A stretch of 62,879 nt of DNA from contig JAJDNT010000261.1 of the NCBI GenBank assembly GCA_022340515.1, forward strand, positions 1 through 62,879, in the 5' to 3' direction. Source of the stretch: Deltaproteobacteria bacterium. Lineage in GTDB: Bacteria; Desulfobacterota; Syntrophobacteria; BM002. Shown one piece after another: positions 2,376-60,739 of the stretch. The notes beneath the pieces were generated by a model. It saw only the letters and a list, made by a program, of their open reading frames with translations, was not told the origin of the DNA and ran no database searches. The position numbers and the translations under genes were made by a program. The stretch's first letter is position 1, and every line of letters begins with the position of its first letter.

Positions 2376-3134
2376 ATGCACATCGACAACTTCGCCAGCG
2401 GAGATTCCCTTCTCCACCGTCTTGACCCCCGAGTCAAAATAGTCATAGCCCTGCTTTTTTCCGTAATTGTCGCAGTAGCTGACAGACCCCTCTGTTTAGC
2501 AACGGCTGTTTGTTTTTCCCTCGCTTTACTCCTTCTCTCCAGCCTGTCTTTGAGAGAGGTTTTCTTACGACTTTTGGCGGTGAACGCTTTTATTTTCTTC
2601 CTCTGGCTTTTTTTGCCCTTTACCTATGGTGGGGAAAAACTTTTCAGTATCGGCCCCTTAACTGCCACCCGGGAAGGAATCATCTACGCCCTCCTTATCA
2701 CGGTAAAATCCAACACCATCGTTGTCGCCCTGATCGCGCTCCTTGCCACTACCCCGATTATCACCTTGGGGCATGCCTTGGGCCACCTCTATGTCCCTAG
2801 CAAGCTGATCCATCTCCTATTCTTCACCGTTCGCTACCTGCAAGTCCTTCATTTGGAATATGACCGGCTGCGCGCTGCCATGCGGATTAGAGCTTTCAAA
2901 CCCGGCACCAATTTGCACACCTATAGAAGTTTGGCATACCTCATCGGCATGCTGTTAATTAAGAGTTTTGATCGAGCTGACCGCATCCGCAAGGCCATGC
3001 TCTGTCGAGGATTTCATGGAGAATTTTATCTCCTCAGCCATTTCGAACTGCAAAGAATCGACGTTATCATGCTCTTGATCATGATGCTCGTCGTAGGTGG
3101 TCTGGCATCATTACAATGGATAATTCTGAAATAA
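2376..3134 (+). CDS. nikQ: ECF transporter transmembrane (T) component CbiQ/NikQ
   Basis: 252-aa polytopic protein between the M/L and ATPase genes. The C-terminal region (RAAMRIRAF ... FDRADRIRKAM) is typical of CbiQ. Confidence 0.85.
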   Translation: MHIDNFASGDSLLHRLDPRVKIVIALLFSVIVAVADRPLCLATAVCFSLALLLLSSLSLREVFLRLLAVNAFIFFLWLFLPFTYGGEKLFSIGPLTATREGIIYALLITVKSNTIVVALIALLATTPIITLGHALGHLYVPSKLIHLLFFTVRYLQVLHLEYDRLRAAMRIRAFKPGTNLHTYRSLAYLIGMLLIKSFDRADRIRKAMLCRGFHGEFYLLSHFELQRIDVIMLLIMMLVVGGLASLQWIILK

Positions 3135-3799
3135 TCATAGATCTAAAGGGAGTCTCTTTCGGCTACCACGGCAACCAGTCCCAGCGGCCGGTACTCCATG
3201 AGCTTAATTTGCAAATTAACCGTGGTGAGCGGGTGGGATTGATTGGGCCCAATGGCAGCGGCAAGACCACTCTCTTTCACCTGCTTATGGGTCTGCTAAA
3301 ACCCTCTCAGGGTGAAATAGTAGTCTTCGGCAAGAAGCGCCAACAGGAGAAAGATTTTAGAGAGGTGAGGGAAAAAATAGGCTTGCTTTTTCAGGATGCT
3401 GACGATCAGCTCTTCTGTCCAACAGTAGCGGAGGACGTGGCTTTTGGTCCACTCAATCTCGGCAAGAGCCAGGAGGAGGCCCTGGAAGTCACTCGCCAGG
3501 TGCTCAAGCGTTTGGGCCTCGAGGAATTCAAGGATCGTTTGACTTATAAATTGTCCGGAGGAGAAAAAAGGTTAATCTCACTGGCAACAGTCCTGGCCAT
3601 GCAACCGGAGGTTCTAGTTCTGGACGAACCCACTACAGGGCTGGACGAAGACACGGTGGAACGGCTCATACAAATATTAACAAGTTCGGACTTAACCTAC
3701 CTTATTGCCTCCCACAATAGAGACTTCCTCTCCCGGACCATCGACATTGTCTACCACCTCGGAGGTGGTAAGCTGGAACGCAGCCCCGATATTTCATGA
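3116..3799 (+). CDS. nikO: ECF transporter ATPase CbiO/NikO
   Basis: Walker A GPNGSGKTT, signature LSGGEKRL, Walker B LVLDEPT. Overlaps nikQ by 19 nt. Confidence 0.9.
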   Translation: MDNSEIIIDLKGVSFGYHGNQSQRPVLHELNLQINRGERVGLIGPNGSGKTTLFHLLMGLLKPSQGEIVVFGKKRQQEKDFREVREKIGLLFQDADDQLFCPTVAEDVAFGPLNLGKSQEEALEVTRQVLKRLGLEEFKDRLTYKLSGGEKRLISLATVLAMQPEVLVLDEPTTGLDEDTVERLIQILTSSDLTYLIASHNRDFLSRTIDIVYHLGGGKLERSPDIS

Positions 3800-3820
3800 A
3801 TCCCAAGGGGTCTGTCGGCT

Positions 3821-26327: not shown

Positions 26328-26381
26328 TTAAAATTATAAATAGAGGCTGGGTAATGCCCACAGTTCGTGAGAATTGGTCAA

Positions 26382-27473
26382 ATGGATCGACGTATGTTTT
26401 TGAGAAAATTTTTAGATCTAGGTAAGAAGGCAGCCTTTCTTCACCTCCTCGCTGGTTGCACTAAGATCACGACTGGCGCTTCCCAGAGTGCAGAGAAACT
26501 CTCACCCTTCAACGATTACGGTCTGCGGGAACTGGCCCAAAAGAAACTTCATCATGGCAAGGAAAGATTCATCAACCCTTTTAGCACCAAAGAACACGGG
26601 AACATGTTGCGCGTTCTCCATTGGAAATTGTTCAGTGAGAATAAGTTCAAGTCATACTATGATGATGAAAGAGTAATTCCGGTTTCCATCCAGTGGGAGC
26701 CCATAAGAGATCACCGTAGTTTATCTGTCACCTTTGTCAAACATGCCAGCGTCATGATTAAGGATGAGGACCAGTACATCCTGGTAGATCCGATCTTCTC
26801 GGAAATCTTCCGCTTCATAAAAGATTTTACCCCCCTGGACTTTGATGGGGAGGAAATACCAAGGCCTGATCACGTCTTGATAAGTCATGGCCACTATGAT
26901 CATTTGGACACCAGTTCACTTGCTTCCCTGAGAGGGGATACCCATGTTGTCAGTCCCCTTGGCTACAATGACGTTTTTGCTGATATCAAAATGAGCAATC
27001 GCACCCAGCTTGACTGGTTTTCAACTTTTGAGGACGGTAGAAGGGAAATTACCCTACTTCCTTGCGACCACTGGACCATGCGCAACCCCATCGAGGGACC
27101 AAACACCTCCCTATGGGGTTCCTATCTATTGAAGACCGCCTCGGGGCCTACCATCTATATTTCAGCAGATACAGCCTACTTTGATCGCTTCCGAGAAATC
27201 GGTGAGGAGTACTCCATCGACCTGGCGATAATTAATCTCGGTGCCTACGAGCCCCGCTGGTTCATGGCAGGCAGTCACATAAACCCCAGGGAGACAGTTC
27301 AGGCTTTCAAAGAACTCGGAGCCGCCAGGTTGATGATCGTACATTGGGGCACTTTCCGCTTGGGTGACGAACCGGTTCACTTCCCACCGCTCGATATCAA
27401 GAGGGAGATGGAAAAGGAAGGCCTCTTGGATCGGTTGGTCTATTTAGAACACGGTGAGACCCTTTTTCTCTAG
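26382..27473 (+). CDS. Exported MBL-fold metallohydrolase
   Basis: Tat-like MDRRMFLRKF plus lipobox LLAGC. The HGHYDHLD metal motif is present. Confidence 0.75.
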   Translation: MDRRMFLRKFLDLGKKAAFLHLLAGCTKITTGASQSAEKLSPFNDYGLRELAQKKLHHGKERFINPFSTKEHGNMLRVLHWKLFSENKFKSYYDDERVIPVSIQWEPIRDHRSLSVTFVKHASVMIKDEDQYILVDPIFSEIFRFIKDFTPLDFDGEEIPRPDHVLISHGHYDHLDTSSLASLRGDTHVVSPLGYNDVFADIKMSNRTQLDWFSTFEDGRREITLLPCDHWTMRNPIEGPNTSLWGSYLLKTASGPTIYISADTAYFDRFREIGEEYSIDLAIINLGAYEPRWFMAGSHINPRETVQAFKELGAARLMIVHWGTFRLGDEPVHFPPLDIKREMEKEGLLDRLVYLEHGETLFL

Positions 27474-27636
27474 CCCGGATATTTCATCAATCCGCCCCCG
27501 GCGTACTCAGGGGCTTGCTCCCAAACCATTCCAGATCAGCATGTGGCAGGAGCCCACACCCGAGGATGGCAGAAAGAACGGTCAGATCAGTGGTCGCAGT
27601 CGCGCCAGGGCCTGAATTTTTGCAACATCCGGGCTA
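27471..27636. mobile_element. Degenerate copy (166 bp) of the foldback element family
   Basis: Shares TAGCCCGGATATTTCAT..., CACACCCGAGGA, GGTCGCAGT and ...ATCCGGGCTA with the 184-bp copies at 47778 and 59433. Confidence 0.6.
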
Positions 27637-47269: not shown

Positions 47270-47521
47270 TGCCCACCAAGGTAACGCCAAACACGCTGCA
47301 TAAGCACGGCGCGAATAGATCTGTTTTTTCTACCCTTACTGAAAATTACATGCTTTAATCCACACTCCAAGCCTCGAGAGCTCGCTACCAAATATGGTGG
47401 TTGTTTCGCGAATGTCACATATAAAAGTAGCTGCTATTTATCTAGAGTCCAAAGCATCCGTGAAAAGCTAGGATCTTCTCATCATATCTGCACTCGTTAG
47501 CCTAACATAATTTCAAGCTTG

Positions 47522-47590
47522 AGCGTTATAATGTAAACTCTCCCACCATTTCAGTGGGACTTCATATATCATACTTTAATCCACACTTAC
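47522..47590 (+). repeat. Dispersed repeat B, copy 1 (AGCGTTATAATGTAAACTCTCCCACCATTTC...CTTTAATCCACACTT)
   Basis: Same length as 56446-56513 and about 70% identical by eye. Partial echoes at about 47350-47375 and 48025-48060. Confidence 0.55.
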
Positions 47591-47638: not shown

Positions 47639-47714
47639 AAAATGTGAGCTAAAGGATGTTATATTAAGTCCTAGCAAGCCAAGAGGAAACTTCATATAAC
47701 TCGATCATATCTTG
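47639..47714 (+). repeat. Direct repeat, copy 2 (core GGATGTTATATTAAG)
   Basis: See 43098-43170. Confidence 0.65.
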
Positions 47715-47777: not shown

Positions 47778-47961
47778 TAGCCCAGATATTTCATGAATTC
47801 CTGTCGCGAGACCGTGAAGTTGGGCGGGCCACCGGGCAACCGCAGGGTGTTGAACCCGAGGCGTACCTATACGGTACGTCGCAGGGTACGACACCCGAGG
47901 ACGCCCGGAAGGACGACCATATCCGCGGTCGGAGTAAGTAATTCATGAAATATCCGGGCTA
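47778..47961. mobile_element. 184-bp foldback (MITE-like) element, copy 1
   Basis: Terminal inverted repeats TAGCCCAGATATTTCATGAATT / AATTCATGAAATATCCGGGCTA. The element centre coincides with the loop of the GGCGTACC-TATAC-GGTACGTC hairpin. It is about 85% identical by eye to 59433-59616. Confidence 0.75.
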
Positions 47962-59432: not shown

Positions 59433-59616
59433 AAGCCCTGATATTTCATGAATTGCTGTCGCCAGACCGCGAAGATGGGCGGGCCACCTGGCAACCACAG
59501 GGTGTTGGTTCCGAGGCGTACTTGAATAGTACGCTGCAGGGGCCGACACCCGAGGACGCAAGGAAGGCCGGCCGTATCCGCGGTCGCAGCAGGTGATTCA
59601 TGAAATATCAGGGCTA
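59433..59616. mobile_element. 184-bp foldback (MITE-like) element, copy 2
   Basis: AGCCCTGATATTTCATGAAT and ATTCATGAAATATCAGGGCT form perfect 20-bp terminal inverted repeats. Same length as copy 1. The terminal CTA (59614-59616) is the rex stop codon on the minus strand. Confidence 0.75.
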
Positions 59617-60249
59617 AGTGCTGGTCGAAGAAATATGGTAGGCGAGGTTGTCTAGTTTGATTGAGAAATCTACGTTTTCCACTCGACAGCAGTCAGGTAC
59701 CTGAATCTGAACCGGAGAGAAATTCAAAATCCCGTTGATCCCAGCAAGAATGAGCTGGTTTGCCACACTCTGGGCGGACTCCGGCGGCACAGCGATAATG
59801 CCCATCTCAACGTTGCGTTCCTTTACTAATTCCTCGAAGCGGTCAACGTGCTCAATGACAAGGCCATTGGGCAGACTCTTGCCGATTTTTTCAGGATCTG
59901 AATCAAAGGCAGCCACGAATCGATATCCATGCTTGAGAAAGTTGGCATGGCGAATAAGGGCTGAACCTAGATTACCTACTCCGAACAATGCCATGTTCCA
60001 CGGGCGATTGAGACCGAGTATCTCTTTGATTTGAGAGTAGAGGTCTTTGACTCTATAGCCAACACCCCTCACTCCAAATTCACCGAAGTACGCCAGGTCC
60101 TTGCGAATCTGGGCTGGATTCACCCCACACTGCTTGGCCAAGCGCTCTGAAGAGATCACCTCGACATCATTGGCTATCAATTCGTCTAGGTTTCTTAAAT
60201 AGATCGACAGCCGGTTGATCGTGGCCATGGGAATCTTGGCGAACTTCAT
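59614..60249 (-). CDS. rex: Redox-sensing transcriptional repressor Rex
   Basis: Start at MKFAKIP (60249), with GAGG upstream. The winged-helix N-terminus (ATINRLSIYLRNL) and the Rossmann GVGNLG motif are present. Confidence 0.85.
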   Translation of the reverse strand: MKFAKIPMATINRLSIYLRNLDELIANDVEVISSERLAKQCGVNPAQIRKDLAYFGEFGVRGVGYRVKDLYSQIKEILGLNRPWNMALFGVGNLGSALIRHANFLKHGYRFVAAFDSDPEKIGKSLPNGLVIEHVDRFEELVKERNVEMGIIAVPPESAQSVANQLILAGINGILNFSPVQIQVPDCCRVENVDFSIKLDNLAYHISSTST

Positions 60250-60306
60250 AACCTCACAGTCCTGTTTTAATATCGGCGGCTGAGCCGATCTCAATTCAAA
60301 GGGTGA

Positions 60307-60342
60307 CCGGGGGATTGACCCACTTTCTGATCAATCCCCCGG
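60307..60342 (-). other. Perfect 12-bp stem hairpin between atpE and rex
   Basis: CCGGGGGATTGA (60307-60318) and TCAATCCCCCGG (60331-60342), with a 12-nt loop. There is no clear U-tract on the minus strand. Confidence 0.55.
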
Positions 60343-60364
60343 TCGGATATCCGCAGTTAAGCTA

Positions 60365-60739
60365 CTAGTGGGCAACCAGCCCTACAAAACCTTGGATGAG
60401 CTTGGACACCGGGTTTGCATAGATCAGAATCAGGCAGATAACCAAGCAATAAATACAAAGGGACTCAATCATCGCCAGACCGATCATCATGGTCACAGTA
60501 ATTTTACCAGAGGCCTCGGGATTACGGGCAACACCTTCCACCGAGCTCTTAATGGAGATTCCCTGAGCAATACCGCAGCCGATAGAAGAGATGGCAATGG
60601 AGAAACCAGCTGCCACGGCAGAGTAGAGGAAGAACCTGAGACCTACAACCTTTTCAGCTTCCGTCGCCTCTCCTGCAAAAGCCAAGGCGGCGAAACCCAG
60701 AACCAGCACCAGCGTCAGAAACAGAACTTTCCTTTTCAT
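60365..60739 (-). CDS. atpE: F-type ATP synthase c subunit with a signal-peptide-like N-terminal extension
   Basis: C-terminal hairpin GIAQG...ARNPE...LAMIESLCIY. The first 25 aa or so (MKRKVLFLTLVLVLGFAALAFAGEA) resemble a signal peptide. Confidence 0.8.
   Translation of the reverse strand: MKRKVLFLTLVLVLGFAALAFAGEATEAEKVVGLRFFLYSAVAAGFSIAISSIGCGIAQGISIKSSVEGVARNPEASGKITVTMMIGLAMIESLCIYCLVICLILIYANPVSKLIQGFVGLVAH

Follow-up and report, generated by a model that had tools for sequence, protein, structure and literature searches.

A TA-flanked 180-bp repeat family, probably a MITE, of uncultured Desulfobacterota with a covarying, strand-biased hairpin

The window, by which we mean the whole stretch of 62,879 nucleotides that was analysed, carries two full copies of a 180-bp repeat, a third copy that is decayed and one solitary terminus. 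The features are as follows.

3783-3802, + strand: solitary left terminus (GCCCCGATATTTCATGAATC); the remainder of the element is absent
27471-27472, no strand: left TA of copy 3; with the element's first G it makes up the TAG stop of the ORF at 26367-27473
27473-27634, + strand: copy 3, decayed (nhmmer, 59 bits); both termini can still be made out, as can the right arm, and the left arm is missing
27635-27636, no strand: right TA of copy 3
47778-47779, no strand: left TA of the target-site duplication of copy 1, from the sequence and the family-wide flank logo
47780-47959, + strand: copy 1, 180-bp core (GCCC...GGGC); + is the better-folding, or forward, strand
47780-47799, + strand: left terminal inverted repeat of copy 1 (GCCCAGATATTTCATGAATT)
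47868-47872, + strand: apical loop of the copy 1 hairpin in the predicted fold, equal to the midpoint of the element
47940-47959, - strand: right terminal inverted repeat of copy 1
47960-47961, no strand: right TA of the target-site duplication of copy 1, from the sequence and the family-wide flank logo
59433-59434, no strand: AA dinucleotide on the left flank of copy 2, read as a decayed TA duplication
59435-59614, + (forward) strand: copy 2, 180-bp core
59615-59616, no strand: right TA of copy 2; with the element's final C it makes up the TAG stop codon of a Rex-like gene

Copies 1 and 2 correspond to two 184-bp segments that a preliminary description of this DNA had judged to be about 85% identical; BLASTN inside the window gives 84.2% identity over 183 nt (E = 8e-54). 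The 184 bp consist of the 180-bp element and its flanking dinucleotides, TA/TA in copy 1 and AA/TA in copy 2, the latter being the most frequent imperfect flank pair of the family (9 of 144 copies). A 15-mer of the terminus occurs six times in the window, where 0.23 occurrences are expected. The segments had each been described as one long imperfect palindrome with a hairpin loop at its midpoint. Both copies are indeed predicted to form a single hairpin spanning their whole length, with RNA minimum free energies of -104.9 (copy 1) and -119.5 kcal/mol (copy 2) against about -61 and -64 kcal/mol for dinucleotide shuffles (z = -9.5 and -13.4; none of 200 shuffles folds as well), and the midpoint of copy 2, at 59523-59527, is an apical loop as in copy 1. 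The termini quoted in that description are exact. Covariance-model scores distinguish the strands clearly, with 186 bits on the + strand and 88 bits on the - strand for copy 1, and 198 and 83 bits for copy 2. The whole-element hairpin of copy 3 is gone (z = -0.8).

Several differences between copies 1 and 2 had been listed as preserving the pairing, and these can be located in the predicted structure. In the structural numbering of our gapless alignment (A3, see below), pair 88:94 is C-G in copy 1 and U-A in copy 2, pair 55:127 is G-C and U-A, pair 36:146 is U·G and C-G, and pair 5:176 in the terminal stem is A·C and U-A, while a G·U wobble lies at 82:100 in copy 1 and at 81:101 in copy 2.

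The genes next to the window copies encode a TPP enzyme, a class-III aminotransferase, a UvrA-like ATPase and Rex. These are ordinary genes, and the earlier statement that no transposase or reverse transcriptase stands beside the copies holds. Three genes end in stop codons derived from the element. The ORF terminated by copy 3 has a metallo-beta-lactamase fold; the Rex-like gene (59614-60294, - strand) has its TAG built from the last C of copy 2 and the right TA; the solitary terminus supplies the end of an ABC ATPase ORF (3116-3799), namely its final five codons (SPDIS) and its TGA stop. These stop codons, the third copy and the solitary terminus, as well as the TA duplication and the Y-TA-R target described below, go beyond the preliminary description. 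Searches for an intrinsic terminator at the element and for tRNA or tmRNA genes near copy 1 returned none.

A related Rex-like gene is found in a Deltaproteobacteria MAG (L043 440-930, compared with window 59615-60400; about 80% identity). It stops with TAA at CTTAGG and is followed by a short GC-rich hairpin in place of the element. This is not a clean empty site, because the upstream neighbour differs.

Further copies, a search for which had been proposed at the outset, are numerous. We scanned genomes, one per species, with the exact 19-mer terminus and metagenomes with a 21-base interior motif, which yielded at least 119 and at least 120 stretches, respectively. Among the matches listed, the hosts of the 19-mer are nearly all Desulfobacterota, Syntrophobacterales or 'Deltaproteobacteria' MAGs, and many terminus pairs are spaced for a 180-bp element. 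A profile search with nhmmer over the 240 listed loci (1.57 Mb) gives 329 non-overlapping hits, of which 153 are full length, 85 are exactly 180 bp long and 80 occupy independent sites. The modal core is 180 bp. Many copies are present on the complete MAG chromosomes CP070843.1, CP070692.1 and CP070689.1. The element is thus non-coding, with no recurrent ORF associated, and at well below 600 bp it is short by the standard of prokaryotic MITEs. Its terminal inverted repeats measure 19-26 bp, and the ends, GCCCGGATATTTCATGAAT(T) and its complement, are nearly invariant over 42-80 copies. The orientation of a copy can be assigned, as one strand scores about 210 bits and the other about 125.

In longer variants one arm bears discrete additional modules, several of which are hairpins by themselves. 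They are found at L060 6730-6958, L086 2066-2300, L095 1572-1808, L020 3453-3692 and 4559-4787, and L008 1419-1737, and also at L068, L059 and L063. The modules include a 49-nt insert after GACCACGAA, a TCCCGCGGTACCGCGGGAT mini-hairpin in place of CAGGGTGT, and inserts in the right arm. At the other extreme are perfect mini-palindromes of 28 bp (L031 5110-5137, L070 7414-7441, L060 5497-5524 and L090 5792-5819). In these relics, TA-GCCCGGATATTTCATGAAATATCCGGGC-TA, two termini are fused at TTCATGAA, and most are still flanked by TA. They probably arose by deletion between the self-complementary TTCATGAA octamers of both termini.

Many hits in loci L001-L239 are truncated where a short MAG or metagenome contig ends, which suggests that the repeat breaks short-read assemblies of the organisms that carry it. 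Two near-consensus copies lie on long contigs with other taxonomic labels, one of 537 kb labelled Acidimicrobiia (L056 4366-4545) and one of 280 kb labelled Alphaproteobacteria (L018 2728-2907). The sample that yielded both contigs also yielded a delta-proteobacterial bin, and the placement of the contigs could reflect horizontal transfer, mis-binning or chimeric assembly.

The element is mobile and duplicates a TA dinucleotide. Empty sites in relatives had been named as something to look for, and one was found: the filled site at L025 reads ..AAATC-TA-[element]-TA-AATAGG.., and the orthologous site at L113, which lacks the element, reads ..AAGAC-TA-AATAGG.., with one TA as opposed to two when filled. 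L113 and L114 each hold a copy that is absent from the other, with both junctions blurred by divergence. TA is present on both flanks in 87 of 144 copies, and most of the others are one base off. Outside the TA, position -3 is C in 70% and T in 22% of flanks, and position +3 is G in 60% and A in 31%. The target consensus is Y-TA-R, and the reconstructed targets are CTAG (40), CTAA (20), TTAG (18) and TTAA (10). We also considered a 4-bp duplication of CTAG in the style of IS5. It was rejected, as the first G and last C of the element are constant while the outer flanks vary; the single TA at the empty site also opposes it. IS630-family elements insert at TA, duplicate it and have a reported preference for CTAG (PMC2170065). 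We infer a transposase of an IS630-like family from the duplication and the target, the two features that carry this assignment.

The target contains TAG, and therefore termini overlap stop codons. Using crude longest-ORF gene calls, we count 28 termini out of 153 that overlap a stop codon belonging to a flanking, converging ORF, in 17 cases as exactly TA+G. The same calls place 62 copies in tandem, 29 in convergent and 15 in divergent contexts, and reveal no preference for the sense strand of co-directional host genes (25 sense, 37 antisense, p = 0.16).

We found no parent insertion sequence with matching termini in the window, the 240 listed loci, viral contigs or plasmids. The ORFs beside orphan termini are not recurrent and share no homology over the 119 genome loci listed. 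Within the 1.57 Mb of flanks of the 240 listed loci, the recurrent ORF clusters tested are ordinary host families: the ten ORFs tested as partner genes, taken from the largest of these clusters, encode ABC ATPases, histidine kinases, sigma-54 activators and the like. Because no partner gene was found in the window, the listed loci, viral contigs or plasmids, we regard the element as non-autonomous. Two candidates for a long element were discarded: a 1233-bp terminus pair at L029 consists of two separate copies around a host gene, and the split halves at L140 enclose host genes.

The proposal that pairing is kept by compensatory change survives in far larger alignments than the two window copies. 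We used a gapless alignment of 29 sequences (A3) and a model-guided alignment of 48 sequences that is fitted to the structure (A4). In A3, 11 of 71 pairs changed on both sides, compared to 4.3±1.2 after shuffling, and in A4 24 of 71 pairs did so, compared to 9.4±2.0; in neither case did any of 500 shuffles reach the observed value, kinship among the sequences being left in for both comparisons. Counted by cells, 68 in A4 changed on both sides against 23.2±4.9 in the shuffles. Pair 39:264 of A4 is A-U in 22 sequences, G·U in 9 and G-C in 13.

The hairpin is also asymmetric between strands. In each of the 80 independent copies the better-folding strand is the one that corresponds to + in the window, with a mean of -109.8 as opposed to -91.4 kcal/mol. 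The opposed mismatches of the consensus are purine·purine in five cases and pyrimidine·pyrimidine in none. For the strand test, departures from Watson-Crick pairs by one transition were collected from the 80 independent copies. Variants shared by at least two copies comprise 34 G·U and 11 A·C (p = 8e-4), counts that represent at least one event per site and type and are uncorrected for phylogeny and inter-copy conversion. Private variants, by comparison, comprise 10 G·U and 24 A·C, and private mutations strike paired columns (0.63 per column) as often as unpaired ones (0.81 per column). A higher conservation of loops than of stems was not significant after removal of selection-biased columns.

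One locus pair bears on how variants are distributed. L001 134-313 and L095 1572-1808 are orthologous insertions with the same flanks and with rare or private variants in common. L001 holds a plain 180-mer, and L095 has two extra modules, which are seen elsewhere, as well as a 4-nt deletion. This comparison suggests inter-copy gene conversion at a site that has stayed fixed. If copies are converted in this manner, 'shared' variants would not be solely 'transposed' ones.

A second family, found in MAGs of Gamma- and Betaproteobacteria, has the same 20-26-bp termini and TA flanks and an unrelated interior of its own. Its elements are 162 bp long.

L021 108-269; L048 8-169 and 4548-4709; L061 6500-6661; L064 4989-5150: copies of the 162-bp family
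L085 188-349; L087 2410-2572; L097 6147-6308: further copies of the 162-bp family

These copies are 65-78% identical. All of them are whole hairpins, and all are better folded on one strand. Their consensus pairs include five G·U and no A·C, every one of the seven opposed mismatches is G·A or A·G, and 20 of 61 pairs covary among seven sequences.

Our preferred reading, to which we assign a probability of about 75%, is that the repeats are copies of a TA-duplicating, IS630-like non-autonomous MITE with a transposase supplied elsewhere. A transposase encoded elsewhere would mobilise the 180-bp non-coding unit, which inserts at the TA within Y-TA-R, preferably CTAG, and causes duplication of the TA. 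DDE transposases of the IS630/Tc1-mariner type behave in this way. As CTAG holds an amber codon, copies often hit the stops of genes, and the first G of the element restores TAG. Variants that spread among copies retain the pairing, mainly on one strand, with G·U tolerated and purine-rich mismatches; gene conversion between copies may contribute to this spread. The integrity of the foldback would then matter for the propagation of source copies, with no service to the host implied at each site. A non-autonomous foldback MITE was one of the two identities put forward in the preliminary description, and the terminal inverted repeats, the TA duplication, the hundreds of copies, the empty site and the lack of a linked transposase all agree with it. 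Counted against this reading are the failure to find an autonomous parent in the window, the 240 listed loci, viral contigs or plasmids, and the better folding of one strand, for which double-strand cut-and-paste offers no explanation.

We infer the reason for the retention of the hairpin from the contrast between shared and private variants. The neutral-looking private mutations, the random orientation and the decay of copies place the filter on the propagating lineage and not on each insertion. In our reading, pairing is filtered on one strand, in copies that give rise to new ones, and resident insertions are exempt. The earlier proposal that selection acts on a hairpin may thus hold for the shared variants, which keep the pairing. 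It does not extend to the individual copies, whose private mutations look neutral and one of which, in the window, is unfolded.

It is possible, if rather unlikely, that the hairpin is not selected at all and that the complementarity of the arms is restored by template switching and inter-copy conversion. The element would still be a MITE, and the 'compensatory' changes would be by-products in inert repeat DNA. Such a process would account for a private double transversion in copy 2, where pair 5:176 went from G-C to U-A, a change that is unlikely as two neutral hits. The conversion suggested by L001 and L095 and the neutral look of the private mutations also fit. Correction from arm to arm, however, yields Watson-Crick pairs and is symmetric between strands, so it predicts no excess of shared G·U over A·C. 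Nor does it predict that, in two families whose interiors are unrelated, the mismatches on one strand should be confined to purines, or that stepwise G·U intermediates should occur as at pair 39:264.

A further, unlikely option is that one strand is selected in both families, either as a single-stranded DNA hairpin intermediate of a TA-duplicating transposase or as a structured RNA. The RNA could be made from source copies, and could aid the spread of the element or act on host transcripts.

We consider it quite unlikely that the element is first and foremost a structured non-coding RNA family, acting as a cis element of mRNAs or as a small RNA from some copies, which transposition only spreads. 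Its functional unit would be the forward-strand hairpin with conserved purine-rich internal loops. The excess of compensatory changes over shuffles in both alignments, the preponderance of G·U among shared variants, the purine·purine mismatches and the better folding of one strand in every copy speak for an RNA, as do the variants with extra self-folding hairpin modules on one arm and the 162-bp family, which keeps its hairpin, its covariation and its G·A or A·G mismatches at such low identity. This reading is at odds with the random orientation, with private mutations that spare no paired columns and favour A·C over G·U, and with the tolerance of decayed copies and 28-bp relics; Rfam, too, gave no match for the window or the five related loci, and a tail resembling a terminator was not found. 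The undescribed structured RNA family suggested in the preliminary description is therefore not borne out, given the private mutations, the random orientation and the decay, and it is the strand signal of the shared variants that keeps the option alive.

It is highly improbable that the repeat is a palindrome mobilised as a single strand by an HUH tyrosine transposase (REPIN/RAYT or IS200/IS605-derived), with the TAs as cleavage sites: strand-specific hairpin quality in both families is what it predicts, but the terminal inverted repeats are long and perfect, unlike a pair of differing subterminal hairpins, there is one TA at the empty site against two at the filled one, the target Y-TA-R is palindromic, no recurrent RAYT- or TnpA-like gene is present in the 1.57 Mb of flanks of the listed loci, and copies occur in both orientations.

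Taken as a non-autonomous MITE, the 180-bp element can be compared to known systems. Bacterial MITEs are 100-200 bp long, often have TA at their termini and give transcripts with long stem-loops (PMC2229807; PMC10969869). The searchable literature yielded no description of the terminus sequence, nor any of MITEs from these taxa. The element is a new family within this known class, with an unusually clear strand-biased and covarying foldback that it has in common with the sister family. The Rfam scan proposed earlier returned no match: Rfam 15 was searched with the whole window at gathering thresholds and with five related loci. A permissive scan of the element and the upstream spacer gave sub-threshold noise only; the hit of the element to the plant miRNA hairpin family MIR807 (28 bits, threshold 113), the single weak one, was dismissed as noise due to its long-hairpin shape.

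Nearest in mechanism is RUP of pneumococcus, which is linked to IS630-Spn1. RUP is likewise small and non-coding, is bounded by terminal inverted repeats, uses TA as its insertion site and reaches about a hundred copies per genome; an IS630-family transposase is believed to move it in trans, and its transcript is predicted to form a long stem-loop (PMC2229807). It is 107 bp long, has short inverted repeats, resides in Streptococcus and is connected to its parent IS by similar termini. The 180-bp element, with 19-26-bp repeats and no parent IS found, is set apart from RUP by this description. To IS630 and ISY100 it is similar in the TA target and its duplication, with the reported CTAG preference of IS630 and Y-TA-R here. 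These are autonomous, transposase-encoding elements of about 1 kb or more, whereas the 180-bp element codes for nothing and a matching IS was not found.

Chunjie, a MITE from Geobacter uraniireducens, measures 178-235 bp and has inverted repeats of about 21 bp (PMC3184786; PMC10969869). Its hairpins are predicted at about -98 to -130 kcal/mol, it exists in size variants, and some copies overlap genes (PMC3184786; PMC10969869). It is similar to the 180-bp element in its host, a former deltaproteobacterium, and in size and hairpin stability. We rejected an identity of the two, since Chunjie has 9-bp direct repeats such as ACGACCGGT and the duplication here is the 2-bp TA, a difference that implies another transposase family.

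Correia (NEMIS) and ERIC elements have TA termini and whole-length stem-loops in their transcripts, are frequently located at the ends of genes, and affect host mRNAs through RNase III or RNase E (PMC10969869; PMC2229807). They occupy different hosts, and the effects of ERIC depend on orientation, whereas the 180-bp element shows no orientation bias. In plants, the Stowaway MITEs combine a TA duplication with a long foldback, are mobilised in trans by mariner-like transposases, and have given rise to MITE-derived miRNA hairpins. They are eukaryotic and have no real sequence relationship to the 180-bp element. REP and REPIN sequences have no target duplication, and a RAYT gene is associated with them or flanked by the repeats. 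An assignment to this group by way of RAYT was rejected, as a TA duplication is present and the recurrent flanking ORFs tested are host families. Palindromes derived from IS200/IS605 have distinct subterminal hairpins at their two ends, with neither inverted repeats nor a duplication; the ends of the 180-bp element are long perfect inverted repeats that pair together, next to a TA duplication, and this origin was rejected as well.

The family is abundant in uncultured Desulfobacterota and appears to break many MAG contigs, and about one in five copies overlaps or supplies a stop codon. Naming it should aid annotation and the interpretation of assemblies. It also provides a data set for the question of why bacterial MITEs are so often whole-length hairpins: two families that have their termini but not their interiors in common keep a strand-biased hairpin by compensatory change, while the insertions decay neutrally.

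The AT-rich spacer upstream of copy 1 contains short repeats of its own, at 47338-47366, 47512-47588 and 47650-47706. They include CTTTAATCCACACT, which is present twice, and hairpin-like units containing ACTTCATATA, and have no matches in Rfam or among tRNAs. They match three places in L024 with 74-91% identity, one of which lies about 100 bp from the MITE copy of that locus.
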